A stretch of DNA of 64,000 nt, taken from an uncultured Planctomycetales bacterium. GTDB taxonomy: Bacteria; Omnitrophota; Gorgyraeia; Zapsychrales; JANLHA01. Location: positions 23,677 through 87,676 of the forward strand of contig CAYYRJ010000008.1 in assembly GCA_964474085.1 (NCBI GenBank). Direction: 5' to 3'. Numbering within the stretch: position 1 is the first letter of the stretch; the number at the start of each line of letters is the position of its first letter. Below are positions 1-16,180 of this stretch, piece by piece. The position numbers were made by a program, and so were the translations under genes. The notes below the pieces were generated by a model. It was given only the letters and a program-made list of their open reading frames with translations, had not been told where the DNA came from and searched no databases.

Positions 1-1
1 G

Positions 2-1729
2 TTACTTTCCTTGCAGGGAGTGGAAGGAAAAACATTCCGGCCTTTAGCCATTACGATTATGATCGCGATGTTTAGTTCATTGCTTTATGCGCTTCTTTTT
101 GTTCCGGCATTGAGTGTTCTTATTATGAAATTCAAGAAAGGTTCGTCATTATCATTCGGTGAACGGGTGATGAATACCATACAGAAGGTTTATAAGCCGC
201 CATTGGAATATTTTGTGAAGCGACGTAAATTGACGGTCATTGCGACCATTACCCTCGCTGTCCTCGGTGCGTTAACATTCCCTTTCCTGGGAACCGAATT
301 TACGCCGGAACTTCAGGAAGGCACTTTAGTCGTCCGTGCGACGATGGCACCCTCAATTTCATTAAATCAATCGCGTGACACCGCGCTTTTGATTGAACAA
401 CAGTTAATGAAATTTCCGGAGGTGACGCAAGTTGTAAGTAGAGTGGGGCGCGGTGAAGTTGGAGCCCATGCTGATCCGGTTAATAGTGCGGAAATGTTTG
501 TTACGCTGAAACCTAAAAAGGAATGGAAAACCGCCAAGACCCAAGAGGATTTATTTGAGGCTTTCAGTGAAAAGTTAGAAATATTTCCCGGCGTTAACTT
601 AGGCTTTACTCAGCCGATTGCTATGAGTATCGACGAACTGCTGGAAGGGATTCGTTCGGACTTAGCCATTAAGATATATGGTGAAGACCTTGCTAAGTTA
701 AAAGAAATTGCGGATCAAGTTGTCAACGTTATTAAAGAAGTTAAAGGCTCAGCGGACGTGCAGGCTGATCAAGTCTCAGGTTCGCCGCAATTAGTTATCA
801 CTCCTGATCCTCATAAAATAGCGCGTTATGGTTTGAGTATGGAGCAAGTTCAATCAACCATCCGGGCCGCTATCGGCGGGGAAACTGCTGGTCAGGTTTT
901 TGAAGGCGTTAAACGTTTTGATATTCTGGTGCGTTATCGGGAAGAGGATCGCGCCAGCAAAGATGATATTGCCCGATTGCTATTGTCTGCATCCAACGGT
1001 GTCGCAGTCCCGCTTTCTCAAGTCGCGGATATACGCGAAGTTGTCGGGCCACGGCAAATCACCAGAGAAAATAATCAGCGTTTTATTGTTGTTCAATGTA
1101 ATGTTCGCGGAAGAGATATGGGAAGTTTTGTTCAGGAAGGCCAAAAAGCCATTCAAAACAAAATCAAATTTCCTGCCGGATACATCGTCGAGTGGGGCGG
1201 ACAATTTGAACTTCAGCAGAAGGCGAACAAAAGGCTAGCTGTTGTCGTTCCAATTACGCTGGGATTAATTTTTCTTTTACTTTATTCCAGTTTCAATTCT
1301 ATTCCTAAGGCATTGTTGATTGTTTTGAATATTCCCTTGGCTTTAGTGGGCGGATTAATAGCCCTTTTTCTCTCCGGTGAGAACCTTTCTGTTCCTTCCT
1401 CTATCGGCTTTATTGCCCTTTTTGGGATTGCGGTAGGGAATGGTCTGGTTTTAGTTTCTCGAATCAGTCAACTACGGCTGGAAGGAAAAGAAATGATGGA
1501 CGCTGCCATTCAAGGCGGATGCGACAGGTTGCGGCCTGTGTTAATGACGGCGTTGTGCACCATGATCGGTTTGATTCCTCTGGTTTTTTCGCACGGAACA
1601 GGTTCAGAAGTTCAAAGGCCATTAGCGATTGTCGTTATTGGCGGACTGATTTCATCAACATTCTTGACGCTATTTGCCATTCCCGCGTTTTACGGATGGT
1701 TCGTTAAAGAAGAAGCGGTAGAATTCTAA
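2..1729 (+). CDS. Heavy-metal efflux RND transporter permease (CzcA/CusA family), C-terminal part. The 5' end is truncated by the window edge.
   Basis: Open frame from position 2 with no start codon. Translation shows AcrB/CzcA-type TM helices and a periplasmic domain; ends EEAVEF. Downstream genes are in a metal-resistance context. Confidence 0.8.
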   Translation, partial: LLSLQGVEGKTFRPLAITIMIAMFSSLLYALLFVPALSVLIMKFKKGSSLSFGERVMNTIQKVYKPPLEYFVKRRKLTVIATITLAVLGALTFPFLGTEFTPELQEGTLVVRATMAPSISLNQSRDTALLIEQQLMKFPEVTQVVSRVGRGEVGAHADPVNSAEMFVTLKPKKEWKTAKTQEDLFEAFSEKLEIFPGVNLGFTQPIAMSIDELLEGIRSDLAIKIYGEDLAKLKEIADQVVNVIKEVKGSADVQADQVSGSPQLVITPDPHKIARYGLSMEQVQSTIRAAIGGETAGQVFEGVKRFDILVRYREEDRASKDDIARLLLSASNGVAVPLSQVADIREVVGPRQITRENNQRFIVVQCNVRGRDMGSFVQEGQKAIQNKIKFPAGYIVEWGGQFELQQKANKRLAVVVPITLGLIFLLLYSSFNSIPKALLIVLNIPLALVGGLIALFLSGENLSVPSSIGFIALFGIAVGNGLVLVSRISQLRLEGKEMMDAAIQGGCDRLRPVLMTALCTMIGLIPLVFSHGTGSEVQRPLAIVVIGGLISSTFLTLFAIPAFYGWFVKEEAVEF

Positions 1730-1741
1730 AAGGAGGAACAC

Positions 1742-2080
1742 ATGAAAAAGATAGAAGCATATATTCAACCGTTTATGCTCAGTAAAGTTGTGAATGCCTT
1801 GCGCGCCATCCATATTCACGGGATGTCTGTTGTAGACGCTAAAGGGTTCGGCAAAGAAAAGGATGAGAGTTATCCGCACCATAATGTAGATCATTTGACG
1901 GACTTCACACCTAAGACAAGGATTGAAATTGTGTGTCTTGATGAGGATTATAAAAAAATAATAGAAGCTATTCGCCAATCTGCTCACACAGGACGTAAAG
2001 GAGATGGTAAAATATTCATCAGCAATTTGGAGCACGCTGTCAGCATTCGTAATGGCAAAGAAAATGAAGAGGCAATTTAA
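1742..2080 (+). CDS. P-II (GlnB-like fold) family protein, associated with the metal-efflux operon
   Basis: 112 aa, N-terminus MKKIEAYIQPFML typical of P-II-like proteins. RBS aaggagg upstream; immediately downstream of the RND pump. Confidence 0.55.
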   Translation: MKKIEAYIQPFMLSKVVNALRAIHIHGMSVVDAKGFGKEKDESYPHHNVDHLTDFTPKTRIEIVCLDEDYKKIIEAIRQSAHTGRKGDGKIFISNLEHAVSIRNGKENEEAI

Positions 2081-2186
2081 TTAACAAGGCTACTATGAGC
2101 GAAAATGGTAGTGCACTTTATAATTTATTTAATCAGAAAAAGAAAAAGTCAGGGAAAAGTAACGCTTCAGTAGAGGGGGTATAAAT

Positions 2187-2603
2187 ATGAGAAAGAATGC
2201 TATTGTTTGTGCAGTATTAAGTATTATAGTTTTCTCAGGTTGCCAAACTTTGGGCATGAAATTCAATGATGAGCATACAAAAGCACACAATGTTGAAATT
2301 CAAGTTGATCAAAAATTGAATAAATACATGAAAGGTGTAAGTTTGAGCCATCGGCTTTATGACGGAAAGGCTTTTCTGGCTTTAAGCGGTTCTTTGCAAA
2401 GACCTATTGGATCTTTCACGTCTTTATTAAAAGTTAATGCGAAGTTTTATGACGAGAATGGCCAAGTTGTGGCAGAGTCAAATGACAATGTACGTTTTAG
2501 TCGCATGGGATCGCGAACACATCGCCGCTATAAAGGTTCATTATTCTTAAAGATCGAGGATAATGTGACAATAAAGAAATGTGTTTTAGAGGTGACTGCG
2601 TAA
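2187..2603 (+). CDS. Hypothetical lipoprotein
   Basis: Signal peptide with lipobox-like FSGC; RBS gagggggt; no recognisable domain. Confidence 0.45.
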   Translation: MRKNAIVCAVLSIIVFSGCQTLGMKFNDEHTKAHNVEIQVDQKLNKYMKGVSLSHRLYDGKAFLALSGSLQRPIGSFTSLLKVNAKFYDENGQVVAESNDNVRFSRMGSRTHRRYKGSLFLKIEDNVTIKKCVLEVTA

Positions 2604-2636
2604 ACTAAACAATTAACCAATAAGAGGAGAATGTAA

Positions 2637-2930
2637 ATGAAAAAGAAAGCAATCGTTTTTAGTATGGCAATTTTATTATTCAGTTCTATCAGTTTTGTAT
2701 TTGCTCAAGAGCAAGTAAGCAATGAGAATGTTGTCAAGATTTGTCCAATCTGCGGCCCTGAAGCAAACATGATGGGCAAAGACGATATCGCCTTTGAATA
2801 TGAAGGAAAAACGTATCACTTTTGCAGTCAAGATTGTTTAAAAGCGTTCAAAAAAGATCCTGAAAAATTTGCTAAGAAAATGGATGAGGGAATGAATGTC
2901 GAATCGCACGAAGGGCATGATCATAAATAA
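2637..2930 (+). CDS. YHS/TRASH-domain metal-binding protein with signal peptide
   Basis: Motif CPICGPE...YHFCSQDCLKAFKKDPEKF is typical of YHS domains found next to P-type ATPases. His-rich C-terminus HEGHDHK. Confidence 0.6.
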   Translation: MKKKAIVFSMAILLFSSISFVFAQEQVSNENVVKICPICGPEANMMGKDDIAFEYEGKTYHFCSQDCLKAFKKDPEKFAKKMDEGMNVESHEGHDHK

Positions 2931-2942
2931 TCGAGAGTCAAA

Positions 2943-4844
2943 ATGACTGAACATCAAAATCAATGCGCTACTTGTAATCATAATGATACAAGGCAGGAGT
3001 TTGATGTAACAAAGAATGTATTTCTGATTGCCGTATCTTTGATTCTATTTGTTTGCGGTTTGATTTTTAATCGTCAGTTGCATGAAACGCCCGCTTTTGA
3101 ATATGGACTCTTTCTTTTTGTCTATTTCCTAAGCGGGCGTTTTGTTTTATTAAATGCTTTCCGTAATATTATTCGTGGCCGCATTTTTGATGAAAATTTT
3201 TTGATGAGTATTGCGACCATTGGTGCAATTGCAATTCATCAGCTGCCTGAAGCAGTCGCGGTGATGATTTTCTATCAGGTGGGGGAGTTCTTTCAAGAAA
3301 TCGCACTTAACCGATCTAGACGTTCCATCAAGGCTCTTCTTGAATTAAGGCCGGATTACGCGAATTTAAAACTCAATGGTGAATTTAAAAGAATTTCGCC
3401 TCAAGAGGTTAAAATTGACCAATTGATTGTGATTAAGCCTGGGGAAAAAATCCCTCTGGATGGAGTAGTCATAGAAGGTAGTTCGCAATTAGATACTTCA
3501 GCTTTGACTGGAGAATCTATACCTAGAACAATCAAGTCCGGCGAGGTAGTTTTGGCTGGGATGATTAATAAAACCGGCCTTCTTACCGTCAAAGTTACAA
3601 AGTCATTTGGAGAATCATCTATCTCAAGAATTTTGGAATTGGTTGAGAATGCCAGTAGCAAAAAAGCTGAGACTGAGAAATTTATTACTAAAATTTCGGC
3701 TTATTACACACCCGTTGTCGTTCTGATCGCTTTATTAATTGCTGTCGTTCCACCGCTGATTCTTGCTGGTCAAAGCTTCGACACATGGATTTACCGTGCG
3801 CTGGTTATTTTGGTTATTTCTTGTCCATGCGCGTTAGTGATAAGTATTCCATTGGGTTATTTTGGCGGTATCGGGGGAGCGGCTCGCAGGGGTGTCTTGA
3901 TTAAAGGTTCTAATTTCCTAGACGTTCTTACAGAGATCAAGACAATTGTATTTGATAAGACGGGAACGCTTACTAAAGGTGTTTTTAAAGTAACAGAGGT
4001 TATCGTAAGGAATGGATTTAATCAAAATGAGATCCTTGAATTCACTGCAATAGCTGAATCACAATCCAATCATCCAATTTCTAAATCGATTGTGGAGTCT
4101 TACGGGAAAAGAATTGATTTGTCAGAAGTTTCGGGATTTCAGGAAATATCCGGGCATGGGATTAAAGCTATAGTTCGCGGGAAAGAAGTCATTGCCGGAA
4201 ATGATCGTTTGCTTCACGCCGAGAATATTGAACATGATGTCTGCGAAGTTGTCGGAACTGTTGTTCATGTTGCTATTGATGGACGTTACTGTGGATATAT
4301 CGTCATTTCGGATGAGCTTAAGGATGATGCAGTTCAAGCAATCGAGTCACTAAGAAATGCTGGGATCGAAAAGATTGTTATGTTGACCGGAGATAACAAA
4401 TTCTCAGCGGGAGCAATCGCTAAACGGTTAAACATAGATTCATTTTATGCGGAATTGCTTCCAGAAGATAAGGTCAAGCACTTAGAGGAGATTCAAAAAT
4501 CTCAAGGACATAAAGTTGCTTTTGTTGGAGATGGCATAAACGATGCCCCAGTTTTAGCTCGAGCGGATGTCGGCATAGCGATGGGTGCTTTGGGTTCAGA
4601 TGTTGCGGTCGAAACGGCAGATATTGTCATTATGGCCGATTCTGTTTCTAAAATTGTGACGGCAATTGATATGGCTAAAAGAACCCGTCAAATAATTTGG
4701 CAGAATATATGGCTTGCTTTGGTTGTTAAATCAGTCTTTATTATTTTAGGAAGTTTTGGAGTGGCAACGATGTGGGAAGCTGTGTTCGCGGATATGGGCG
4801 TTGCCCTGCTGTCTATTCTGAATGCAACCCGGCTGTTAAAATAA
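2943..4844 (+). CDS. Heavy-metal translocating P1B-type ATPase (Cd/Zn/Pb-like)
   Basis: CPC motif (SCPCALV), TGES, DKTGTLT, GDGINDAP and MVGDGINDAP-type motifs, and an N-terminal Cys/His metal-binding region. Confidence 0.9.
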   Translation: MTEHQNQCATCNHNDTRQEFDVTKNVFLIAVSLILFVCGLIFNRQLHETPAFEYGLFLFVYFLSGRFVLLNAFRNIIRGRIFDENFLMSIATIGAIAIHQLPEAVAVMIFYQVGEFFQEIALNRSRRSIKALLELRPDYANLKLNGEFKRISPQEVKIDQLIVIKPGEKIPLDGVVIEGSSQLDTSALTGESIPRTIKSGEVVLAGMINKTGLLTVKVTKSFGESSISRILELVENASSKKAETEKFITKISAYYTPVVVLIALLIAVVPPLILAGQSFDTWIYRALVILVISCPCALVISIPLGYFGGIGGAARRGVLIKGSNFLDVLTEIKTIVFDKTGTLTKGVFKVTEVIVRNGFNQNEILEFTAIAESQSNHPISKSIVESYGKRIDLSEVSGFQEISGHGIKAIVRGKEVIAGNDRLLHAENIEHDVCEVVGTVVHVAIDGRYCGYIVISDELKDDAVQAIESLRNAGIEKIVMLTGDNKFSAGAIAKRLNIDSFYAELLPEDKVKHLEEIQKSQGHKVAFVGDGINDAPVLARADVGIAMGALGSDVAVETADIVIMADSVSKIVTAIDMAKRTRQIIWQNIWLALVVKSVFIILGSFGVATMWEAVFADMGVALLSILNATRLLK

Positions 4845-4863
4845 TGGCACAAATCCGGCACAA
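4845..4863 (+). repeat. TGGCACAAATCCGGCACA repeat unit (sigma-54-like TGGCAC-N5-nGGCA). A second copy lies at 5073-5107.
   Basis: 19-nt direct repeat (1 mismatch) on both sides of the orphan tRNA fragment. Matches the -24/-12 sigma-54 spacing. Confidence 0.35.
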
Positions 4864-4930
4864 GAATTTTTGAGGTTTTATAAGTTTAGTTATTTGAAGA
4901 GGTTGTGTAGGAGCCTAGTTCTCTCATAAC

Positions 4931-4967
4931 CTGAAGGTCACAGGTTCAAATCCTGTCCCCGCAACCA
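4931..4967 (+). pseudogene. Orphan tRNA 3' half (T-arm, 3' acceptor strand, discriminator and CCA) with no 5' half
   Basis: acagg-TTCAAAT-cctgt T-arm followed by ccccgca-a-CCA. The complementary 5' acceptor tgcgggg is not present upstream. Confidence 0.5.
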
Positions 4968-4973
4968 AATAAA

Positions 4974-5005
4974 AACCCAGTTTCCGACGAGGATTCTGGG
5001 TTTTT
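4974..5005 (+). terminator. Putative rho-independent terminator
   Basis: aacccag ... ctgggtt stem followed by a T-run, immediately after the tRNA fragment. Confidence 0.35.
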
Positions 5006-5072
5006 GTTTGCCTTGTGCAAATCTTCAATTACTGCCAATTTTGATGAATTTGGGCCATTTTTGATGTAAAGT

Positions 5073-5107
5073 TGGCACAAATCTGGCACATTTTTGGCAC
5101 ATCAAAA
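5073..5107 (+). promoter_or_regulatory. Three tandem TGGCACA boxes (sigma-54-like -24/-12 element) about 100 bp upstream of the island cargo gene
   Basis: tggcacaaatctggcacatttttggcacatc. Boxes are spaced 11-12 bp apart. The first two form TGGCAC-N5-TGGCA. Confidence 0.35.
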
Positions 5108-5208
5108 TCCCCCCTTTGACACCCCATAGTTGCTCGGTCGAAATAATAGCGTGAAAAAGATAAGAGTGTTAAAATAGAAAATTATTATTAATCCCTTTTT
5201 GGGTTTTT

Positions 5209-7845
5209 ATGAGAGACGCAGATAAAAAAATTAAAGAAGCAATTTCAATGGGTGAAAGAAATTTAGAGCTAATTAAATTGGCTCAGAATTTTTGTGCTCA
5301 TATGAGATTGGAAAAAGCGAGAATGGGTGGTACTGGCATCGTTGAACAAATGACCGGGCTGCCAATTGGATCAATGTCTTGTGGTTGCAAATATGCACGT
5401 GCCAACGGTTTTAGTGGCGGGGATACTGAAACGATCGCTATAGATTTTTACGACAGGAATTGTGTTGATTGTGATAAGCGATCTCCTGTAGGCATACCAA
5501 ATTTATTAAACTTAATTGAGGAAAAAAAGAAAAACGAATTAGAACGAAAAAGACAACAAGAGACGCAACAAGCAATATATGAAAAAACTAAGGCTGTTGA
5601 ATTAGAGGCGCGAAGAATCGAAAGGTCTAAGCTGCGTAATGATGACCTCTCGAGGAACTCAATCCTTGATCTTATTGATAAAATAGATGGAGGTTCCCAT
5701 GAAGATGCTGATAAATTAATTGAAACAGCAAAGATAGCACCAGATAAATTTGATTTGGATATTCAAAATGCTCTTTTTAGTCTCATAGATGGTGGGAATT
5801 TCTCTAATGTCGAGTCGGCCATAGAAACACTTACAATAATTGCGAATAATGGCCAATCGATTAATACGGATACAAGAGTAAACTTCAGTTGCAATGAACG
5901 GGAATTGATAGATATTGATCGATTAGTAGTTTCCTCGCTCAAAGCTCTGGATAGAGGTTCAGGGCATAACGAGGCAGCTACAGCAGTTGAATTTTGGCTC
6001 GATAAAAAACATGAAGTATATATAACCGACGATGTAATTGAAGGATTAATCCGCATCGCTTACCCTGCAAGAGAACCACTCTCATTTAGCGCCACTGTTT
6101 ATAGGCCTAGCCCTTTGCAAAGAATATATGATATTTTTCCAGAAAAAGTTTTAGCTACTGTAAGAAAGCTTTTAGCAATCGATGAGAAATGGATTAGAGT
6201 TTCGGCTGCAGGAGCTGCTCGATATATCATAGAAAAAGATGCTCAGTTTGGAATCAATATAGCCGAAACTTTATTGGATTCGTTAGACTTATCCGATGAT
6301 ATGTACGACGGTGGATCTGCTCGAGTAGCTGCCATGCATACTCTGGGAAAAGCTCTTAGTGAAGCGCCAAATGAAATTGATAAGTTCATCCAGGGAAAAA
6401 TTGAAAAAATATCCTCTCATTTAAGAGGGGATATTTTTTATGCATATGATGCGATCTTCCGAGAAGACAGGCGTGGAAAAAAGAGAGAGCTTCCAGAAAA
6501 TCTAAGAAATTTGGTCATCAAAAGACTTTTGGAAACTCTAATACTCAAACCGGATGATGAAAGACTTGAAAAAGCAACGGATATATTGCAAGGATTTGAA
6601 TATGGCCATATGGAATATCTCATCGGCCATGAAGATTTACTTTTGGGAGCGGCTGCACAAATAGCTGCGGAGTTAGACAATCCATATAGCTTGCTTACTG
6701 ATCCTCGGCCAGATTCAATCAAGATGATGGAGTCGACTACGAGACGTATCCATCTTCAATCTGCGTTGGAAGTTATCATGAAGCATGTTGGCTATTTGGG
6801 GAAGATTCGACCTCTTACGATAGGTAATCAAGTCGTCGAGTGTATAAATAATTTAAAGGAGCACAGCGGCCATTTAAAAAGCGCGCTCATTTCTACACTC
6901 GGATATATTGGATCTAGCGCTCAAGGATTGCCTTTGGTCTTACCAAGTCTTAGTTCTGGATTCAGTGATTCCAATTCTTTAGTTCGTTCTTGCGCGGTTG
7001 AATCGTACGGTAATCTTACTTCCCATAAGTCAGTAAGTTTACCATCCTCTTTACATGAATTATTTTGTGCATCTCTTAGCGATCCCTATGTCTTGGTACA
7101 TACGCGAGCCGTTGAGGTATTGCGAAAGTCCCGCCTCCCAGAGGAATATGTTCCTTTAATAAGGAATAAGTTAATCCTTCTAATGTTGGTTTATCGCCAA
7201 GAAAAGAATGGTGCAGATTTTCTAGCAAGATGCATTGATGAACTATTGAATTTAACTGACAGATTCCAACTTGTTGAATCGAAGCTTGCTAATTTTGTTT
7301 TAGGGATAATGCCTCTTATTTCCCCGTATGAGAGGGTTAAAACGTTCATTTTTCATCGCCATCAATTAAAGGAAGCGGAGAAATATTCAGAGCAAGTCGC
7401 AACTTTATTAAATGAAGAGTATCTTTATGGTTTAAACATAGGTGAAGCTATGGAGCTTGTTGGTGAATTACCTGTTGCAGAGGTGTTACGGATCAGGTCC
7501 ATTCTTAAAGATGCAGCTAAGAAATTGATTAGCAATAATCTGTACGGCTATTCTTTGGAAATAATTGAGTTGTTATCAATTGCTTATTGCTGGGATGCGG
7601 CCCACGAGGTGGTTGAATTTTTTGTTAATTCCATTGAAGACACGACAGAAAATAAACCTTTGAGGTTGAAGGCTCTGGCTTATCAGTCCGCCGTAGGACT
7701 AGAAGTAGCAATATTATCCAAAGATGATGCAAAAGCGGAATATTATCGTAAGACGTGGAAAGAAAATCTAATAAAAATACAAAAAGACAATGAGACAAAC
7801 GCAGACAGAAGAAGTTTTTTTAGAGGCATACGATTGCCGCGTTAA
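5209..7845 (+). CDS. Large uncharacterised protein (878 aa) with an N-terminal Cys cluster and HEAT/ARM-like repeats; island cargo
   Basis: Long ORF; Cys motif CGC...CVDC; repeated VRxxAxExL-like helical repeats; AT-rich codon usage. Confidence 0.7.
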   Translation: MRDADKKIKEAISMGERNLELIKLAQNFCAHMRLEKARMGGTGIVEQMTGLPIGSMSCGCKYARANGFSGGDTETIAIDFYDRNCVDCDKRSPVGIPNLLNLIEEKKKNELERKRQQETQQAIYEKTKAVELEARRIERSKLRNDDLSRNSILDLIDKIDGGSHEDADKLIETAKIAPDKFDLDIQNALFSLIDGGNFSNVESAIETLTIIANNGQSINTDTRVNFSCNERELIDIDRLVVSSLKALDRGSGHNEAATAVEFWLDKKHEVYITDDVIEGLIRIAYPAREPLSFSATVYRPSPLQRIYDIFPEKVLATVRKLLAIDEKWIRVSAAGAARYIIEKDAQFGINIAETLLDSLDLSDDMYDGGSARVAAMHTLGKALSEAPNEIDKFIQGKIEKISSHLRGDIFYAYDAIFREDRRGKKRELPENLRNLVIKRLLETLILKPDDERLEKATDILQGFEYGHMEYLIGHEDLLLGAAAQIAAELDNPYSLLTDPRPDSIKMMESTTRRIHLQSALEVIMKHVGYLGKIRPLTIGNQVVECINNLKEHSGHLKSALISTLGYIGSSAQGLPLVLPSLSSGFSDSNSLVRSCAVESYGNLTSHKSVSLPSSLHELFCASLSDPYVLVHTRAVEVLRKSRLPEEYVPLIRNKLILLMLVYRQEKNGADFLARCIDELLNLTDRFQLVESKLANFVLGIMPLISPYERVKTFIFHRHQLKEAEKYSEQVATLLNEEYLYGLNIGEAMELVGELPVAEVLRIRSILKDAAKKLISNNLYGYSLEIIELLSIAYCWDAAHEVVEFFVNSIEDTTENKPLRLKALAYQSAVGLEVAILSKDDAKAEYYRKTWKENLIKIQKDNETNADRRSFFRGIRLPR

Positions 7846-7867
7846 TATTATTAACGGTATAGCTGAT

Positions 7868-9250
7868 ATGAAAAGCGTTGGGGAAAAGTGTTCCGCGCTT
7901 AATAATATCAAGTCTGATATCGATAAAATTATTGAGCTATTAGGCAATAATTATGTGAAGGAGTTTTATTTAATTTTTAAGAGTTTATTTACTGCCTATG
8001 AATTTCTAACGCAATGGGAAGAAGCTGTAAAGAATGCCGCTGAGAATTCAGGTCGATTTCACGAAGCGTATAAATATCACATCAAAGAAGCATTTAAGAA
8101 AATTAATGGGTTAGAACCTAATAAAGATTTGGTTAATGCAGCTAGCGGCATGGACAATATTGTTGTAACCGATGATATCGGGAAAGCCTTAAAATCTTTA
8201 TCCGCTATCCCGTTGCCTTTACCAATTCATTGGGAAGAGGATCCGGAGTTAAAAAAACATTATCTACAAGAAACAAAAAATGCAAAACGAGAGCCGATGA
8301 TAACGGCATTCTTAAATTTTAAGATTAATAATGAAAACCTTCAAGATCCACACCTTATCGATCCAAATACTTTATACGATTTAAATTTAGAAGTCCGAAT
8401 AAACAGATGGCCGGGAAATTCAGAGAAGCTGGTAATTCAGCCATTATCAGATGTCACAGGAGAGAATTATCAAATGCCAACATTTGAAATATCAAAGAAT
8501 GAAAAGAATAAGACTTATCACGTCTCGGGAAGAATGGCGATAAAGATTGGGCAAACATTTGAATCGCAACCGTTAGAGTTTGTATATCAGGCATATATTT
8601 TGCCAGGACAAGAAGTTATCGCTGTTACAGGAAATAACCGGATAAATGTGAGGAGTAATTCTGAAGGCAAGCTCATAATATCTGGATATTACGAGGCAGA
8701 TAAAGTATTAATGACAGTAAGATCAAAAATAACGAAAGAAGCAGGCATCACTTCTGAGCAAAGAATCAACTTTTTGCTAGTGATGAAGCATCTCGCTAAT
8801 ATAGCTGGACAAGCATTAGCATCTAATGATTTCCCGGACGTTTGGGCTGAGAAAGACTTTCAGACGGAGATCAGGAAGCGATTGCGCGCTGTTCCTGAAA
8901 TAGGAAGTCAATTGCTTGAGCATCCTAATGTCGCGGCTGGTATACCAGATTTGTTTTTCAAAAAACTGCAAATAGAACTGAAAACCCAGAACGAAAAGAT
9001 AGTCACTTTAGATAATGCTCAATCATTTTCGCAACAGGGAGCTCAATATGTGGCAGGATCGGATAATCGTTTAGGAATTATTTGTATTCTGGATTGTTCT
9101 GACAAGAAGCTGGCTCCGGGATCATTAATGAATGACATTGGATTGATTTCTGTTCCAGTGCCAGGAATTATTCAGGGTGGTTTTCCTTTGATATTGGGTG
9201 TGGTAATAATTCGAGGTAATCTGGGGAAGCCCAGCTCATTTAGTAAGTAA
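7868..9250 (+). CDS. Uncharacterised protein (about 460 aa) with a C-terminal PD-(D/E)xK-like motif; island cargo
   Basis: ORF 7790-9250; the likely start is ATG 7868, which avoids overlap with the upstream gene. Motif GIPDLFFKKLQIELK near the C-terminus. Confidence 0.6.
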   Translation: MKSVGEKCSALNNIKSDIDKIIELLGNNYVKEFYLIFKSLFTAYEFLTQWEEAVKNAAENSGRFHEAYKYHIKEAFKKINGLEPNKDLVNAASGMDNIVVTDDIGKALKSLSAIPLPLPIHWEEDPELKKHYLQETKNAKREPMITAFLNFKINNENLQDPHLIDPNTLYDLNLEVRINRWPGNSEKLVIQPLSDVTGENYQMPTFEISKNEKNKTYHVSGRMAIKIGQTFESQPLEFVYQAYILPGQEVIAVTGNNRINVRSNSEGKLIISGYYEADKVLMTVRSKITKEAGITSEQRINFLLVMKHLANIAGQALASNDFPDVWAEKDFQTEIRKRLRAVPEIGSQLLEHPNVAAGIPDLFFKKLQIELKTQNEKIVTLDNAQSFSQQGAQYVAGSDNRLGIICILDCSDKKLAPGSLMNDIGLISVPVPGIIQGGFPLILGVVIIRGNLGKPSSFSK

Positions 9251-9251
9251 C

Positions 9252-9479
9252 TTAAGGTAGAAAGAATTTTGTAGGCTTTTTATATATCTTGGCTAGTTCT
9301 TGGAGTTGTACGAGGTCAATTCGACGTTGGCCGGATTCGATTTTAGAAATATAAGATTGGGTTCGCCCCAGTTTATCCGCAGCATCTTCCTGCCGCAATT
9401 TTGCTTCCTCGCGGGCTTTGATCAGTAGTCCAACCAAGCGCTGATGTTCTTTGGAGTAAATGGTTTTCTTTGCAGGCAT
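9252..9479 (-). CDS. XRE-family HTH transcriptional regulator (cI/Cro-like)
   Basis: 75 aa; Q-x-x-L-A-x-x-L-G-x-x-Q-S-Y-I-S-K-I-E HTH signature. Confidence 0.7.
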   Translation of the reverse strand: MPAKKTIYSKEHQRLVGLLIKAREEAKLRQEDAADKLGRTQSYISKIESGQRRIDLVQLQELAKIYKKPTKFFLP

Positions 9480-9510
9480 AAGTATTGTCTTCCCCTATAA
9501 AAAATGATAT

Positions 9511-9540
9511 ATTCCATTATGTAATATGCCAAAATGGAAT
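9511..9540 (+). promoter_or_regulatory. Palindromic operator ATTCCATT-N14-AATGGAAT in the divergent region between the XRE gene and the lipoprotein gene
   Basis: Perfect 8-bp inverted repeats read directly in the sequence. Confidence 0.45.
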
Positions 9541-9551
9541 ATGGAGGCATC

Positions 9552-9998
9552 ATGCGAAATATTGCTCTGATTGTAATTTTGCTTTGCTTCATGGGGTGTT
9601 CGGCCACGGAGTGGAATCAATTGATGTGGGGTAATCCTAACGGGCCGCAGCCAGCCCCTAAACAGTACGGCGCTCTATGTATTACTTGCCAACGTGATTT
9701 TGTGGTGACTGAGCAGATTATTAGTGCTGGGAAGGGAGTTGTTTGTCCATATTGTGGCAAAGAGCAAGATATTCAGATGGCCATGAACCGGTACACATAT
9801 CAAACCCAGCAGCAACAAGAAGTAGCTAATCAGGCTTTTTGGCAAAAGCGACAAGAGACTTTACAGCGAAGGAGAGAAGAAGAGCAGAAAGCAAGTGAGG
9901 AACGGAAAAAATGGTTGTTAGCTCCAAGTCAACGACAATCCACGCATACAAGTTGTAGCCCTAATGGGAGTGGTGGGTTTTCTTGCAATTCTTGGTAA
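9552..9998 (+). CDS. Lipoprotein with a CxxC...CxxC zinc-ribbon and a charged, Q-rich C-terminal helix
   Basis: Signal peptide MRNIALIVILLCFMGCS; motifs CITC...CPYC; QQQQE/RRREEEQK low-complexity region. Confidence 0.5.
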   Translation: MRNIALIVILLCFMGCSATEWNQLMWGNPNGPQPAPKQYGALCITCQRDFVVTEQIISAGKGVVCPYCGKEQDIQMAMNRYTYQTQQQQEVANQAFWQKRQETLQRRREEEQKASEERKKWLLAPSQRQSTHTSCSPNGSGGFSCNSW

Positions 9999-10288
9999 GA
10001 ATATTATTTAAAGAGAGCATTGAAACATGGTTTTTTGCAAAAATTTGTTGATTTTTATTTAAAATTATGGTCTAATTAAAATACGGTTGACAGTACCCGT
10101 ATAAAAAAACTGGTCACTTCTATCCGTCGAAAAGGATCCTTGTTTAAGGGATTAAATGGACGGCTCTACGAAGGGTATCGAGCAGGAAATAGTTGAATCG
10201 CTCGGAACTCTTCGTTTTTTTATTTATTGGCCGAAGATTCGAGCAAGCGCTTGAGTCCTCGGTTTTTTTATTGTTCAAAAGGAGCCAA

Positions 10289-10480
10289 ATGAGAAATGAT
10301 AACTTTTTGAATCAGATTCGTAAGAGGCAAAAGTTAAAACTTAAGGATATTTCCAGTAAAACGGGATTGAGCGTTGGATATTTAGGAACAATTTTTTCCG
10401 GGAGACTTTCATTTGTACCTGAGCAGACCAAAAGTAAGATCGCCATGGCATTGGGTGTTTCAAAAAAATTTATTTATTAA
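10289..10480 (+). CDS. Small XRE-type HTH protein
   Basis: LKDISSKTGLSVGYLGTIFSG HTH. The ORF is listed from 10193 but the likely start is ATG 10289. Confidence 0.45.
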   Translation: MRNDNFLNQIRKRQKLKLKDISSKTGLSVGYLGTIFSGRLSFVPEQTKSKIAMALGVSKKFIY

Positions 10481-10868
10481 GGCATGTGAATTTAATTTTT
10501 GGGCGCCTTTTTGAACTAAACAATTTTGACTAGACCTCATATATAAACGAAAGAGAAAAGATGCTCAACCATGCTTTAACCTATTTAAGACGAGGGTGGG
10601 CTGTATTCCAGGTACAAGTTAAAGAGCTGTTCGGGTGTAAATTCCATGCGTTCTTTCTTTGAGTTTGCGTTCGTAATAGGTTCCAATGGTGGCATCCTTT
10701 TGGCAGTATATTCTTTTTTCGCCTAAAGTTAATTAACCCTTCCGCTTGAGGTCACTGTCGCTGAAAAAATGGGGGAGCATACGGTCAAAGCGGGTTTAAT
10801 TTCCAAATCAAATACTTCTGCGAGAGATGCGTTGTTGAAATTGAATCTTGTAAAAAAGTGAAGGCCTT

Positions 10869-12842
10869 ATGTACAAAGTATTTTGGAACCAAGTAATATC
10901 TCCTCGCCGATTATCAAATGGACATTATATTGCCAACTGCCCACTATGCGGCGAAACAGACGGACATTTCTACGCTAATTATTTATCCGGCCAGTGGGAC
11001 TGTAAAAAATGCCAAGCCAAGGGCAACGCGGTCACGTTCCTGCGGGATCACCAGAGGATGCCGGACGCCCAGATCGCTAATGAACTAAACCGATTAGGTA
11101 TAGCCTCAACTTCTGAATCACAAAGGTTACCCCAACCCAAGAGCGAATACAAGATTTTTGATGAGAAGATGGTCGATTATTATTGTTCCCAATTATCCAC
11201 GGACAAGAAGGCGGAATTTGCCGCGGAGCGCGGGCTGTCTGTTGAGATATTGGATAAGTACCGGCTGGGGATCAATGATATTGGCGAGTTCACTCTCCCC
11301 GTATTCGATACTCAAGGAAAGATTAGAAACATCCTAAGGAAAAAGCCGGGAGAGTCGACCATTTCAATTCAAGGCGGCGAAGGGTTACTTTTCGGAGTTG
11401 AGGACTTAATCGCGCCGGTTATTTTTGTAGTTGAAGGTCCGTGGTCGGCCATGGCCTTAAAAGAACGCGGATTTAAGGCGGTCGGGACTCCCGGGGCCGG
11501 GATTTTGAAGGATAGCCAAGTTGACTTGTTTAAAAGCAAGGAAGTCTATCTAATCCCGGACAACGACGAACCTGGCAGGAAGGGGATGGCGTCAATCGCC
11601 CAGAAGCTCCGCGGCGTTGCGGAAAGCGTTTATACGATAAGTCTACCAGTCCCGGAGAAGAAGGATGCCCGTGATTTCTTTAAGGCTGGTGGTACCGTGG
11701 ACCAGCTTGAGGAACTTATCAAGCAGGCCCGAGAGAATCCGTCTGTGATGGCAGAGTCAGAAATTGAGAAGCACTCCAGCCATAAAAAGTTGTCACCCGT
11801 TCCCAGTTACGACGAATTTATTAAGCAAGAGTTCCCTCCAGTTGAGTTTTTTATCGGTAGTGTAGACGGAGGTGCCTTATTGCAAAAGAACGGGATTACC
11901 ATGATCAGCGCGGAATTTGGCAAGGGCAAAACGCTTTTGGGTTTAAACATGGCTTGGGCCATTACTAAGGGCGTTGATATTTTCCTGGGCTTTCCCGTTA
12001 AGAAGGCCCGGGGGCTTTATTTGATATTTGAGGGCGGCAATTCGTCATTTCAGAAGCGATTAAAGGCCATAGGCGAAGGGGAGTCGAACCCGGACTTATA
12101 CGTGAAGTGTATCGTTCACTCGTTTAATTTGACCCCTACCGGGAACGAGAAGACCGAAGACCAGAAGGAATTTGAGGAAGAGATTGAACGACTTAAGGTC
12201 GACTTTGTTGTTATTGACAACGCCGCGAATGTTTTTTCTGGGGATGAGAATGATCAAAAGCAAGTTAAGCCGTTTATGGATTACCTGATCTCGGTTAAGG
12301 AGAAATTCAGGGTGTCATTTATTATTTTACGGCATTGGAAGAAGACTCAAGCCAAGGGCGGTAGCCCAAAAAGGCAAATGGCAACAGGGTCAATATGGTG
12401 GCTTAACGCGGTGGATAACCAGATATGCCTATCGGGTGAGTCCATAGACAGTATTATCCTAAGCACCGAAAAGGAACGGAACTGTGCTTCATTCTCGCCC
12501 AAAGTGGTCACAATTACAAAGCCGGATTTACATTTTAAGTTTCTCAAGGATTTTGCCAGCAACGGTCCGCGCTATACCGAAGACAACACGCTCCTGCCTG
12601 CTTGGGAGAGTTTCGGGGCCACCCGGGTTAAGCAGACGGACTTGGTTGTCAAGATGACCCAGATTGTCCAGGCCGGTGGGGCTAAGTGTTCAAAACGGAC
12701 AGCTAGTGGGCTTTTAGACAATAGTAAGCGCTTCTTTAAGACGCCTATCGTTCCCGGTAGCAGGAAATCTGGCAATTGGATCGCTTTAAAGCCGGATTCT
12801 GGTATTGAACTTTTTGACGAGGGTGAGGACAATGTTTCTTAA
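10869..12842 (+). CDS. Bifunctional primase-helicase (CHC2-like zinc finger, Toprim, RepA/DnaB-like P-loop)
   Basis: CPLCG...CKKC zinc motif; Toprim E (VVEGPW) and DxD (PDNDEPG); Walker A AEFGKGKT. Architecture typical of P4-alpha/PICI-type replication initiators. Confidence 0.85.
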   Translation: MYKVFWNQVISPRRLSNGHYIANCPLCGETDGHFYANYLSGQWDCKKCQAKGNAVTFLRDHQRMPDAQIANELNRLGIASTSESQRLPQPKSEYKIFDEKMVDYYCSQLSTDKKAEFAAERGLSVEILDKYRLGINDIGEFTLPVFDTQGKIRNILRKKPGESTISIQGGEGLLFGVEDLIAPVIFVVEGPWSAMALKERGFKAVGTPGAGILKDSQVDLFKSKEVYLIPDNDEPGRKGMASIAQKLRGVAESVYTISLPVPEKKDARDFFKAGGTVDQLEELIKQARENPSVMAESEIEKHSSHKKLSPVPSYDEFIKQEFPPVEFFIGSVDGGALLQKNGITMISAEFGKGKTLLGLNMAWAITKGVDIFLGFPVKKARGLYLIFEGGNSSFQKRLKAIGEGESNPDLYVKCIVHSFNLTPTGNEKTEDQKEFEEEIERLKVDFVVIDNAANVFSGDENDQKQVKPFMDYLISVKEKFRVSFIILRHWKKTQAKGGSPKRQMATGSIWWLNAVDNQICLSGESIDSIILSTEKERNCASFSPKVVTITKPDLHFKFLKDFASNGPRYTEDNTLLPAWESFGATRVKQTDLVVKMTQIVQAGGAKCSKRTASGLLDNSKRFFKTPIVPGSRKSGNWIALKPDSGIELFDEGEDNVS

Positions 12843-13068
12843 CTTATCATGCAAAATTGCCGTCTGCACTATAAATGAACGTAAATTTGGTTTCTTAACG
12901 TATGGTGCAAAACGTAATTTTGCATTAGAACGCCACAAAGACGCAAACGGTTGTGGTGCGCATAAAGCGCACAAACAACCTTGCGATGAGGTTTCTTATG
13001 CAGAGGAAAAACACTATATAGGGAAAGAAACGTTTGCATAAGAAAAAAAGAGGTTTGAAAGGAGAACA

Positions 13069-13511
13069 ATGGAGCTAACACCCTCGCATGAAATTTTTGC
13101 CCAGGAGTTGATCGTTAATAAAAGCAACCTAACGTCAGCGTATGCCAAAGCATATCCAAAGGCTTCTTATCCGTCTTGCCGTCAGGGAGTAAGCTGACAG
13201 AAATAATCGACCGTTTGCCACCGGGTCGCATGCGTTCTGATTACAGCAAAAAAAGGGACGCTTTGAGTTCTGTTTCTAGAGAAAAGGAAGAGGAATCAGA
13301 AAGAATAAGCGCGCTCGTGGATATAGCAAAACAAATGAACACGGACTGTTTTATGTGTAAAGAGGTCGTGGAGAAATTTGATCGCAATCAACCTTTAAGC
13401 GATGGAGATAAATATCATATACAATCGCATATCCCTGCGGTAGTCCGGTTGCGGGAATTCAAGGGAAAAGTTTTGGTGAGTATCAAATTATTGATTAACC
13501 ACATATTCTAA
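13069..13511 (+). pseudogene. Frameshifted terminase small-subunit-like gene. The N-terminal HTH is in one frame and the remainder in the +1 frame.
   Basis: 42-aa ORF MELTPSHEIFAQELIVNKSNLTSAYAKAYPKASY matches the TerS N-terminal LTPKQE..F..EY...N.T.A...AGYS signature. ORF 13176-13511 continues in another frame from a TTG. Confidence 0.4.
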
Positions 13512-13972
13512 TTGGATAGGTTCCCGGATGGATCATGACCACAGAAGTTGCGCGCAAAAGGACAATAAGTGCGTGGAATTTAAGTTATAGTGCATAACTT
13601 ACTTTATATCAATTAGTTAAGTGCTGGTTAACATAACCTCAACTATGCGTAACTCATTATATTCCATATCTTTACGATTTGTTGACGCGATTCCCAGCTC
13701 GGCGGTATGTAATTTTACTTAACTTCAATAACTGCATATATTTACAATGAAAAATTAGATAGAAAATATGATGGGAATACACGCGCACGCACAGGTAAGT
13801 ACGTTTATAGCTGGACGCATGTTAGGGCAATTCCATATTTTAAAATTGGCAGGTTGCTACGATTCAAAAAGTCAGAAATCGATCGCTGGATCAACGAGCG
13901 CAGGGTTGAAGAAAGGATAATTTAGGAAGATTAGTTAATTTTAACAGTGAACGTTAAAAAAAGGAGCGAAAA

Positions 13973-14509
13973 ATGGAATCATCTTTTAAATTGAGTGTAA
14001 GTACTTTTATGAGACCAGATCAAGATATTCCGAAATTGATTAGAGCAATGATGAATGATTTGGGGGAGAAAACACCTGATTTTAGCTCGATTCAAGAGGC
14101 ACTGGACTGGTTGAATATGTCCACTGCACCTTTTAAGTTATTTCTAAATTTTATGTTTGAAGACTCCTTGGGTGAGCCGGGTAGGGACTGCCTCAAGAAA
14201 ATACATACAAAATATGGAAAATCACTTATTGAGTTTACATTTGAAGAACTTAAAAACTTTTCATTGACGCCAGAGGGGGAAGAGCTTAAGCGGGTGATTT
14301 TAGTGCGTAAATATCCTATAAGATTTAGCCCCATCGATACCGAATCGCGTGAGGAGTATATTTTTGAGAAAGCAAAATTGGTGTATAAGCTGATTGGGGA
14401 AATTCATTCAGTGATTAAGGCTGGACATAATCCACGAAATTTACTGGCGAGCATGGAGGATTTTCTTTCGGAACCAGAGTATCGATATTTCTTCGAGAGT
14501 GACTATTAA
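13973..14509 (+). CDS. Hypothetical protein (178 aa)
   Basis: ORF with RBS aaggagcg; no recognisable motif. Confidence 0.45.
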   Translation: MESSFKLSVSTFMRPDQDIPKLIRAMMNDLGEKTPDFSSIQEALDWLNMSTAPFKLFLNFMFEDSLGEPGRDCLKKIHTKYGKSLIEFTFEELKNFSLTPEGEELKRVILVRKYPIRFSPIDTESREEYIFEKAKLVYKLIGEIHSVIKAGHNPRNLLASMEDFLSEPEYRYFFESDY

Positions 14510-14558
14510 GAATGAACTCATTTAAGCAGACTTGCGGGGGTAGTTCTTAGGAACTTCG

Positions 14559-14741
14559 ATGGAAAAACGTTTTCTAAATAAAAAAGAACTGGCTGAGTAT
14601 CTGGGCGTTAAGGTTGGCACCCTGTCCGTCTGGGTTTGCTATCGAAAGATCCCGTTTGCCCGTATTGGCAGACTCGTAAAGTTTGACCTGCGTAAAATTG
14701 ATGCTTGGATAGCTGAAAACTCTGTTGAAGTTATGAACTGA
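14559..14741 (+). CDS. AlpA/excisionase-family HTH DNA-binding protein
   Basis: 60 aa; LNKKELAEYLGVKVGTLSVW...IPFARIGRLVKFD matches the Phage_AlpA / Xis HTH_17 pattern. Located upstream of int. Confidence 0.7.
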   Translation: MEKRFLNKKELAEYLGVKVGTLSVWVCYRKIPFARIGRLVKFDLRKIDAWIAENSVEVMN

Positions 14742-14771
14742 TGTTGGTATAATTTGGCGTAAACGCAATTA

Positions 14772-14800
14772 TTGACAATGTATATACATAGATATACAAT
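14772..14800 (+). promoter_or_regulatory. Near-consensus sigma-70 promoter TTGACA-N17-TACAAT with the 12-bp palindrome ATGTATATACAT in the spacer
   Basis: Read directly from the sequence; located upstream of the RHH-int operon. Confidence 0.5.
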
Positions 14801-14811
14801 GGGAGCGTGAG

Positions 14812-14958
14812 ATGTCGAGAGATGAACAGATCAATATCCGCTTAACTCAGGACGAAAAAAAGCAGATTCAGAAAGATGCCCAAGAGCAGGAAAGAACAGC
14901 CAGTAATTTGCTTTTGTGGTGCTGGAAAGAATGGCGAAAGTCGAAAGCGAAGAAATAG
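14812..14958 (+). CDS. Ribbon-helix-helix (CopG/Arc-like) small protein, 48 aa
   Basis: INIRLTQDEKKQIQKDAQEQERTASNLL RHH signature. RBS gggag. Stop TAG sits 1 nt before the int ATG. Confidence 0.5.
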   Translation: MSRDEQINIRLTQDEKKQIQKDAQEQERTASNLLLWCWKEWRKSKAKK

Positions 14959-14959
14959 C

Positions 14960-16078
14960 ATGAATGGTGTATTCCAAAACAAAAAGACTGGGAATTGGTT
15001 TATCGATTATCGCTTGCCTAATGGCAGGCGTCGGCGGGAAACCATTGGCACAAGCAAGAAGCTGGCAGAGAATGTTTTGAGCAAGCGCAAGGTCGGAATT
15101 GCCGAAGGAAAGTTTCTTGATGTTGTTAAGAAGGAGCGTATTAAATTTGAAGATTTTGCCCAAGAATATTTTACTATTCATTCCAAGCAGCACAAGAAGG
15201 GTTGGCAAACTGATTCGTTTAATATAAAAATTTTGAATAGGTTTTTTAAGGGTAAGTATTTATACGAAATCACGCCAGTTGATATCGAGCATTTTAAAAT
15301 CGAGCGGCTCAAAGAAAAGGTTGGCTTAAAAACGATCTCTCTCTCGACTGTTAATCGACAGTTGGACACGCTGCGCGGGATTCTAAATAAAGCAGTCTCG
15401 TGGGGTAAATTGCAAACTAATCCCATGAAGTCAGTTCAATCACTTAAGGTAGCTCCGGGGCGACTTCGTTTTCTTGAGAAAGAGGAGATCGTCAAGCTCT
15501 TATCAAATTGTACGAAAAATCTGCGGCCTATTGTGGTCTTAGCTTTATTTACTGGTATGCGCCGGGGTGAGATTCTTGGTCTTAAATGGCATGATATCGA
15601 CGTTAAGCGGAATATTATTACTCTGTTGGAAACAAAGAATAATCAGAAAAGAGAAGTGCCTATGAGCGAGCATGTAAAAACTGCTCTTATCCGTGTTAGA
15701 AAGCATCCAGATTGCGCATATGTTTTTTGTAATGAAAAAGGTCTACCAGTGCATGACATTCGCAAATCTTACTCGACAGCGCTGCGAAAATCTGGTATAA
15801 AAGATTTTCGCTTTCACGACCTACGCCATACTTTCGCCAGTCAACTGGTCATGGCAGGCGTTGACATCAATACGGTCAGGGAGCTTTTAGGGCATAAAGA
15901 TATTACGATGACTTTACGATATAGTCATTTGGCCCCGAGGCATAAGCAACATGCCGTTGATATTTTGAGCAAGAAAATGGACACTTTTTGGACACTTGAG
16001 GCTAAGCCCAACAATGTTATGAAAAGTGATGTATCAGAAACCATTGAAAATAGATTAGTTACAAATTTCGGGGAGTAG
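14960..16078 (+). CDS. int: Tyrosine-type site-specific integrase
   Basis: R..HDLRHTF...[14 protein letters not shown] catalytic signature. N-terminal SAM-like domain. The 3' end overlaps the tRNA-Pro 5' end. Confidence 0.9.
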
Positions 16079-16145
16079 CGCAGGTGGCTAGCGCGCAACG
16101 TTCGGGACGTTGAGGTCGTGGGTTCAAATCCCACCTTCCCGACCA
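16069..16145 (+). tRNA. tRNA-Pro (anticodon CGG)
   Basis: Manual fold: acceptor cggggag/cttcccg, D-stem gcgc/gcgc, anticodon stem caacg/cgttg with loop ttCGGga, T-arm gtggg-ttcaaat-cccac, discriminator A, encoded CCA. Confidence 0.85.
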
Positions 16146-16180
16146 GACTATAAATAAACGCGCTGTATAAGTTTTGCTGA

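Follow-up and report, generated by a model that had tools for sequence, protein, structure and literature searches.

A probable mosaic of tRNA-fMet-type and tRNA-Pro-type attachment arms in a mirror-polarity integrative island of an Omnitrophota genome

The DNA analyzed here, which we call the window, is a stretch of 64,000 nucleotides on contig CAYYRJ010000008.1 of an uncultured bacterium placed in Omnitrophota (assembly GCA_964474085.1), and its segment from about 4930 to 16068 appears to be an 11-kb integrative island with Olokun-like defense cargo, helix-turn-helix (HTH) regulators, a primase/helicase, an excisionase, and a tyrosine integrase. The integrase gene, int, stands at the right end of this island and reads into the 5′ end of a tRNA-Pro(CGG) gene, while the left end holds a piece of a different tRNA, the 3′ part of an initiator tRNA-fMet. 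The features of the two ends on which our argument turns are listed below, with positions counted from the first letter of the window.

4845–4875, + strand: degenerate copy of the left-arm repeat (TGGCACAAATCCGGCACA...ATTTTTG), with 17/18 identity to 5073–5090 and similarity over about 28 nt with one indel
4923–4967, + strand: orphan 3′ part of initiator tRNA-fMet, an exact 45-mer from the loop CTCATAA (4923–4929) to the encoded CCA (4965–4967)
4971–5005, + strand: hairpin AAAAACCCAG / CTGGGTTTTT, its loop holding the box CCGACGAGGA (4984–4993), as read from the sequence
5068–5125, + strand: left-arm block with three copies of TGGCACA at 11-nt spacing (5073–5101), presumed arm-type sites of the far arm (P′)
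14876–16078, + strand: tyrosine integrase int, 400 aa (PF00589, 9.6e-37; PHROG integrase, 3.7e-82)
15978–15995, + strand: int-side (P) arm-type repeat TGGACACTTTTTGGACAC, within the int codons for DTFWT, 91 nt ahead of the tRNA start
16068–16107, + strand: predicted identity block borne by the element, a T followed by the 5′ half of tRNA-Pro up to and including its anticodon loop TTCGGGA (16101–16107), by analogy with the 40- to 43-nt repeats of relatives
16069–16145, + strand: intact tRNA-Pro(CGG) (ARAGORN, Rfam), which would be reconstructed from an island-borne 5′ half and a resident 3′ half

The tRNA-Pro(CGG) gene that ARAGORN places at 16069–16145 on the + strand is intact after integration, scoring 62.9 bits as a complete tRNA over the whole Rfam model. 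The int open reading frame (ORF) ends in AAT TTC GGG GAG TAG, with the TAG at 16076–16078 falling on bases 8–10 of the tRNA, and so the 10-nt overlap between the int stop and the tRNA 5′ end that a preliminary description of this DNA had pointed out is borne out by the tRNA coordinates. The overlap itself is incidental, because the window copy lacks the stop codon that usually lies 3–12 nt upstream of the tRNA and its frame therefore reaches the conserved U8-A9-G10, which is TAG. The same read-in, with an integrase C-terminus of ...GE or ...GA, is found in 18 of the 120 best homologs, and several others read through the tRNA. The integrase has the conserved HxxR ... H ... Y catalytic motifs of tyrosine recombinases, and its ORF is complete; it is not split on integration because the attachment (att) site of the element, attP, carries the same tRNA 5′ half, and the overlapped segment is part of the block that travels with the element. 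No sigma-70 promoter for the tRNA was predicted inside the int tail. We also considered whether tRNA-Pro might be cargo of an island whose boundary lies further right, and this was ruled out by the absence of a second copy of the 45-mer together with the synteny of two related loci, L015 and L016. These occupy the same chromosomal locus as the window, with tRNA-Pro(CGG), acylphosphatase, LigA, and XerC in the same order, and hold a different island, which has a conjugative coupling protein and an integrase 77% identical to that of the window.

The arrangement at the right end is shared by a large integrase family. More than 6,600 homologs are found at E ≤ 1e-20, and wherever the source gives a name they come from Candidatus Omnitrophota metagenome-assembled genomes (MAGs). 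We examined related integrase loci in 13 independent groups, with 24–80% identity and mostly from Candidatus Omnitrophota and metagenomes, and in 13 of 13 a co-oriented tRNA comes right after int, either no more than 12 nt past the int stop (usually 3–12) or overlapping it. In every group, as in the window, int thus stands on the 5′ side of the tRNA and reads into its 5′ end, which is the reverse of the usual polarity. The adjoining tRNAs are Pro-CGG, Pro-TGG, Leu-CAA, Lys-CTT, and Ser-GCT, and the excisionase gene just before int (the order xis-int) is found in relatives as well. Near the end of int, the codons for a conserved DTFWT hold the repeat TGGACAC-N4-TGGACAC, which is missing from L149 only. 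The distance from this repeat to the tRNA start is 92 nt in 9 relatives, 93 and 95 nt in two others, and 91 nt in the window (repeat positions 15978 in the window, 11148 in L015, 11016 in L018, and 11013 in L145). As this distance is fixed at about 92 nt whatever the tRNA, the tail of the int protein and the DNA site are jointly constrained. A scan of IMG/VR found no relatives of the window integrase, and no description of this integrase family was found in the literature searched.

What the reversed polarity means for the att sites can be read from five relatives in which enough upstream DNA is present (L015, L018, L145, L146/147, and L148), where direct repeats of 40–43 nt bound islands of 4–10 kb. 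These repeats run from tRNA position −1 or −2 to 38/39, that is, over the 5′ half through the anticodon loop. Since the piece displaced to the far end is a 5′ half, attP must carry a 5′ half directly after int. The identity block stops where the loop does, at its 3′ edge, which suggests that strands are exchanged within or at the 7-nt loop, and the anticodon stem is the likely symmetric core. In the mechanism that we propose, the integrase family would recombine at the tRNA anticodon loop with mirror-image polarity. Here, the int ORF would be followed at once in attP by the 5′ half of the tRNA (positions −2 to 38/39), and strand exchange in or at the loop would join this element-borne 5′ half to the resident 3′ half, so that int ends a few nt before the rebuilt tRNA, with the resident 5′ half and the native promoter region being displaced to the far end. 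The right end of the island would then be a normal attR of a mirror-polarity element. Of the three origins that the preliminary description had offered for this geometry, the 5′-side integration mode is strongly supported, both by the tRNA right after int in all 13 groups and by the displaced 5′ half of the same tRNA in five.

Recombination with the 5′-distal part of a tRNA is considerably rarer than with the 3′ part, as is stated in a portion of PMC6563490 that cites Zhao and Williams 2002 and archaeal cases. The integration mode is thus known but rare; what is new in detail is the family with its rigid architecture, and the mismatch between the two ends of the window copy.

The far arms of the relatives have landmarks of their own. 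The displaced 5′ half directly adjoins the far arm and does not lie at a distance from it. A conserved box, CCGACGAGAA, stands 55–56 nt beyond the loop in L015, L018, L145, L146, and L148 (5/5), and a second TGGACAC repeat follows at 119–122 nt beyond the anticodon loop. In L015, L018, L145, and L148, the two-unit TGGACAC repeat is present in both arms, the far-arm copy being identical to the int-side copy down to element-specific variants, and the far arm of L146 has a close variant; such co-varying repeats look like arm-type Int sites. The native sequences that immediately precede the displaced 5′ halves of L148 (~355–387) and L015 (~1600–1642) are homologous. In L148, a perfect TATAAT lies about 18 nt ahead of the displaced-half repeat, and the native tRNA promoter has therefore probably been displaced there so as to point into the island. 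L146 also has an extra 16-nt copy of the tRNA-Pro 5′ end (5177–5192, also at 1444–1459 of L147), 61 nt upstream of its 43-nt displaced half, which looks like the scar of an earlier integration at the same site. Outside these loci, the exact arm motif ATGGACACTTTTTGGACAC occurs in an IMG/VR contig (L226, 783–940), where some 95 nt separate it from the 3′ fragment of a tRNA(CAT) in inverted orientation. The 6.7 kb examined of that contig contain no related integrase, and the motif may be there by chance or may belong to a distant element of classical polarity.

The left end of the window island differs from this pattern. Positions 4923–4967 (CTCATAACCTGAAGGTCACAGGTTCAAATCCTGTCCCCGCAACCA) comprise an anticodon loop, the 3′ strand of the anticodon stem, the variable region, the T arm, the acceptor strand, and CCA, and they match exactly the intact initiator tRNA-Met(CAU) genes of many Alphaproteobacteria and one Planctomycetaceae MAG, with an initiator-type acceptor end. 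Given this 45/45 match, the orphan is tRNA-fMet and not tRNA-Pro. Its identity with tRNA-Pro is limited to the generic T-loop 11-mer GGTTCAAATCC, apart from which there is no direct repeat between the island ends, and the anticodon loops CTCATAA on the left and TTCGGGA on the right match at 3 of 7 positions. The preliminary description had seen a 3′ half here that is unlike tRNA-Pro, and this holds; the piece is longer than the T arm, acceptor, and CCA given there, since it reaches back to the anticodon loop. The intact counterpart of the orphan, which it proposed to seek in the genome, is seen here in other genomes, and the full-length tRNA over 4890–4967 that would have changed the picture is found neither by ARAGORN nor by Rfam at E ≤ 1. 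Its treatment of the orphan as the att repeat of the island's far end is not supported, the piece being tRNA-fMet with the polarity of a classical (3′-part) att core. Nor does the duplicated tRNA-Pro 5′ part that it proposed to look for, and whose counterpart for the adjoining tRNA we see at the far end in five relatives, occur elsewhere in the 64-kb window when up to three mismatches are allowed, and a second TGGACAC repeat was not found in the window either.

Two other origins for the orphan were tried and rejected. A decayed full-length tRNA at 4890–4967 is contradicted by the ARAGORN and Rfam negatives, the upstream 32 nt being weakly like the 5′ half or D arm of fMet (p ~0.03), and a crossover in the T-loop was ruled out because both T stems are internally complementary and neither tRNA is chimeric there. 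The same 45-mer without a 5′ half is present in a Verrucomicrobia MAG (L067) and in L039, L058, L078, L092, and L135. It also recurs without a 5′ half in dozens of IMG/VR contigs (L159–L218). In these genomes and contigs, where the piece often lies near a contig end, it is a classical att core in frequent use.

To the right of the orphan, the DNA takes on the landmarks of the family. The box CCGACGAGGA lies at +56 counted from 4930 (the loop ends at 4929), compared with 55–56 nt in the five relatives. Matches to it with at most one mismatch number only five on this strand in 64 kb, the probability of a coincidence in this register is about 2e-4, and none of 181 other tRNA-fMet contexts has the box at that position. 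The block of three TGGCACA copies, at +143, occupies the place of the relatives' two-unit TGGACAC far-arm repeat (+119 to +122), and over its 58 nt (5068–5125) it is 95% identical to 181–238 of L012/L014, the rest of the two islands being about 75% identical. With family landmarks at the expected offsets, the orphan is built into the island's own left arm and does not stand beside it. The segment 4930–5208 behaves as the family's far arm, with a perfect tRNA-fMet 3′ half where the relatives have unrelated sequence or a decayed cognate relic. The earlier proposals that the orphan came from a previous element, or from tandem or successive integrations, stay open with the qualification that the DNA right of it bears the landmarks of this family's far arm and is not ordinary chromosome. 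The third TGGCACA of the left-arm block is followed by TTGACAC. The block could hold arm sites, an operator, or a promoter; its spacing fits the sigma-54 pattern GG-N10-GC, but the −12 element is off-consensus.

Our preferred reading, to which we give a probability of roughly 0.7, is that this is a mirror-polarity integrative island in which the left arm of a tRNA-fMet-type att site has been joined to a tRNA-Pro int/att module, and that the result is probably an immobile mosaic. The far end would then be a family-type arm, with the box CCGACGAG 56 nt after the loop and the arm repeats beyond it, preceded by the tRNA-fMet loop and 3′ half, and the att site from which this left arm derives would have been based on tRNA-fMet. 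The two arms may have been joined by recombination between related elements of differing tRNA specificity, or by successive integration followed by deletion. If exchange takes place in the loop, the present ends should not recombine, since their anticodon loops differ at the presumed exchange site, and the sequence of the two ends thus suggests that the island probably cannot excise by simple attL × attR recombination.

Several observations weigh against this reading. The segment 4845–4922, left of the orphan, holds a copy of the left-arm repeat but is unlike an int tail, and this reading accounts neither for the copy at 4845 nor for the segment as a whole. The far-arm TGGCACA differs from the int-side TGGACAC, unlike the matched repeats of other relatives, and the sibling L012 has the same mismatch. 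The spacing from loop to arm repeat is 143 nt, against 119–122 nt in relatives. An insertion sequence (IS) element cuts the arm of L012 exactly where its homology to the window begins, leaving this sibling uninformative on the tRNA-fMet piece, and no family member targeting tRNA-fMet was found among the related loci. The hairpin after the CCA could be a native tRNA-fMet terminator, which would favor a classical attR. Finally, no excised-circle junction for the window island was recovered, and as neither this nor an empty site is at hand, the left boundary and the history rest on analogy. We tried 4845–4922 as a remnant of an int tail; this was not supported (p = 0.69), and short-word BLAST gave no similarity to the family loci. 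The degenerate repeat copy begins directly past the stop codon of the P-type ATPase gene on the left flank, and a search of IMG/VR with the left-arm 29-mer and both left-junction strings returned no matches. The IS element in L012 is an IS3-family transposase gene (HTH_Tnp_1) at 1–181, at the contig end, and it ends within a few bases of the left-arm block.

The possible terminator leads to an alternative in which two unrelated events lie side by side. In this case, the orphan would be the classical attR of a separate left island inserted in the loop of tRNA-fMet, and the attL of the tRNA-Pro island would have been deleted, with the loss of the Pro 5′ half and about 120 nt of arm. The left island might include the czc/ATPase genes, and 4968–5067 would be native tRNA-fMet flank. 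The fragment does start exactly at loop base C32, as the classical 45-mer fragments do in L067 and in dozens of IMG/VR contigs, and a hairpin and then a T-run come right after the CCA; yet the box within that hairpin stands exactly at +56 from the loop, with the chance given above, and is found there in 0 of the 181 tRNA-fMet contexts. The DNA past the ATPase differs in every relative, which marks a variable spot, but the copy left of the fragment is of the island's own left-arm repeat and is not expected in the arm of a foreign island. Scars of earlier integration do occur in the family, such as the 16-nt tRNA-Pro 5′ relic of L146, while neither an intact tRNA-fMet nor a second integrase is seen in the 4.9 kb of the window upstream. 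We regard this alternative as unlikely, though worth keeping in view beside the mosaic.

The junctions are not products of misassembly, for they are found in independent assemblies: L152 corresponds to window positions 4771–9904 (99.9%), L010 to 2055–4950, and L003 to 14768–16173, and int, the tRNA, and the gene after it are covered together by L003, L002, and L006. The source is metagenomic and its short-read graphs break at 4950, 5072, and 16097, so a chimeric contig, or a chance tRNA-like string on the left, might be suspected. With each junction spanned at 99.9–100% identity by independent assemblies (L152, L003, L002, and L006), a 45/45 match to tRNA-fMet, and no 32-mer matches in 100 shuffles, we find an artifact or coincidence hardly credible. 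The breaks themselves are consistent with shared sequence. The Logan contig L001 starts at 5072 because the exact 34-mer 5068–5101, longer than 31 nt, is shared with L012; the breaks at 4950 and 16097 fit the shared 45-mer and the tRNA 5′ part. Both L001 and L004 stop at 16097, which would be the expected branch point of a 31-mer graph if identity with another context begins at 16068. No empty site was found: every contig that encodes an exact DUF4870, YHS, ATPase, int, or cargo protein either has the island as well or ends before reaching it, and the ATPase relatives at 77–81% identity have unrelated DNA downstream.

The stops at 16097, which come from the two samples SRR12487046 and SRR12487035, suggest a second context sharing the T and the tRNA-Pro 5′ part, and could be taken to mean that the island is a normal mobile member of its family, with a far arm that naturally includes a tRNA-fMet segment and a true attL with the tRNA-Pro 5′ half further left or rearranged. 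That second context could equally be island-free cells. Decayed cognate 3′ relics in L018 and L145 show that tRNA-derived DNA at this place is normal for the family, but the relatives have their displaced half directly before the far arm and not at a distance, the tRNA-Pro 5′ half is absent from the 64 kb at the stringency already given, and the stop codon of the ATPase abuts 4845. We consider it very improbable that the island is an ordinary mobile member.

The relics just mentioned bear on a further possibility. The first ~40 nt of the far arm resemble the 3′ half of the cognate tRNA in L018 (z = 3.4) and L145 (z = 3.9) and do not in the other three relatives. The relics lie at 1533–1575 in L018 and 3955–3995 in L145, and include, for example, CCCCTTGGCAA and CCTTCCACGA. 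Judged by these alignments, ancestral attP sites may have held a whole tRNA. The family might then descend from whole-tRNA attP sites in which either half could decay, and the window island would be an intermediate in a switch or a state of dual specificity, with a far arm that keeps the classical tRNA-fMet part from loop to CCA and an int arm with the mirror-image tRNA-Pro 5′ half. Support for this idea, which we think quite doubtful, comes only from the two cognate relics and from the slight likeness to a D arm upstream of the orphan. If true, the island would show directly how a tRNA-targeting integrase comes to change its polarity as well as its target.

Within the probable mosaic, the island genes between the two arms are as follows.

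5209–7845 and 7790–9250, + strand: cargo, two overlapping ORFs resembling Olokun OloA and OloB (PADLOC OloA, 7.9e-20; OloB, 3.5e-12)
9252–9479, − strand: HTH (Xre/cI-type) regulator (PHROG transcriptional regulator matches)
10869–12842, + strand: primase/helicase with zinc ribbon, Toprim, and AAA_25 (Pfam; PHROG DNA primase/helicase, 5.4e-36)
14559–14741, + strand: excisionase-like HTH_17 protein of AlpA/Xis type (PF12728, 5e-10; PHROG excisionase, 1.1e-08)

Apart from one HTH regulator, every gene between 5209 and 16078 reads along the + strand, and small ORFs lie between the regulator and the primase/helicase. The cargo ORFs at 5209–9250 have no Pfam or PHROG matches. The regulator (9252–9479) and an ORF at 9534–9998 form a backbone in common with the sibling L012, with 76% DNA identity to 3590–3961 of that contig. 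The slot beside the left arm holds the Olokun-like OloA/OloB pair in the window (5209–9250) and SIR2 with HerA in L012 (431–3248), and it looks like an exchangeable position for defense cargo. A search by way of a SIR2 homolog for the far side of the IS element in this sibling led to an unrelated defense island.

On the left flank lies a czc-type efflux, P-II, YHS, and P-type ATPase operon (window 1–4844), and on the right flank DUF4870, acylphosphatase, LigA, and an XerC/D-like gene. The czc efflux-YHS-P-type ATPase operon is kept at 71–77% DNA identity in L153, L154, and L156, with the P-II gene present in the window and L156 only. Homology to these operons runs out at 4844/4845, where the ATPase gene has its stop codon. 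Beyond this point each relative has DNA of its own, which in L156 is an element with a serine recombinase and a primase. The XerC/D-type recombinase at 19523–20410, the region's second gene of the integrase family, belongs to the conserved housekeeping block that is syntenic in L015/L016 and lies outside the island.

Island-finding tools and textbooks assume the order tRNA, int, island, and 3′ fragment, and a family with the opposite order would be missed or misbounded. The risk is greatest in Omnitrophota and comparable uncultured phyla, for which MAGs are the sole source of knowledge. The polarity may also affect transcription, since the displaced native promoter region of the tRNA would go with the 5′ half and point into the cargo genes, and the rebuilt tRNA, lying 3–12 nt after int, would probably depend on transcription from the island. 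With an arm site inside the int ORF, the ~92-nt spacing, and the +56 box, the rigid architecture of the family makes it well suited to the study of how tRNA-targeting integrases select and switch their targets. The disagreement between the two ends of the window island may capture a change of target in progress or, more modestly, may tell how islands become chromosomally fixed.

The family can be compared with several known systems. A classification of tRNA-targeting elements from 2002, by Williams, reportedly includes an anticodon-loop sublocation. In classical tRNA islands, attP bears the stretch between loop and 3′ end, and it is a 3′ fragment that is displaced. Like classical anticodon-loop islands, the family has an identity block bounded by the 7-nt loop and a restored tRNA, and the anticodon stem is presumably its core site; the direct repeats end at tRNA 38/39 in the five relatives, and the window has no repeat, with an fMet loop on the left and a Pro loop on the right. 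The orphan 45-mer has the exact classical form, the one used in many IMG/VR contigs, whereas the identity block of this family runs from the 5′ end to the loop.

In SSV1-type archaeal integrases, attP lies inside the int gene. Similarly, the int ORF and the att region overlap here, with the arm repeat in int codons and the stop codon in the tRNA identity block. Unlike in the SSV1 type, the 400-aa int ORF of the window is not split, since the overlapped 5′ half travels with the element and the same ORF is present in attP and attR. Among small integrative elements with defense cargo, the islands resemble P4-like or PICI-like satellites in having Int, an AlpA-type Xis, a primase/helicase, HTH regulators, a variable defense slot, a size of 4–11 kb, and a location at tRNA genes. 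They differ from P4-like satellites in their reversed tRNA polarity. Capsid-hijacking (psu/sid-like) or other helper-exploitation genes have no Pfam or PHROG matches among the ORFs of the island; the relative L018 has a small-terminase-like gene.

There is a likeness, too, to known cases of 5′-part tRNA integration, in which the element carries the 5′ portion of the tRNA, rebuilds the gene on the int-proximal side, and displaces a 5′ fragment; the five relatives do the same, and so does the right end of the island in the window. In the window copy, unlike in these cases, there is no matching displaced half. Here, moreover, 5′-part integration characterizes an entire integrase family, which is large, mostly associated with Omnitrophota, and directed at several tRNAs, and which has its arm site encoded within the int ORF at a constant spacing of about 92 nt.

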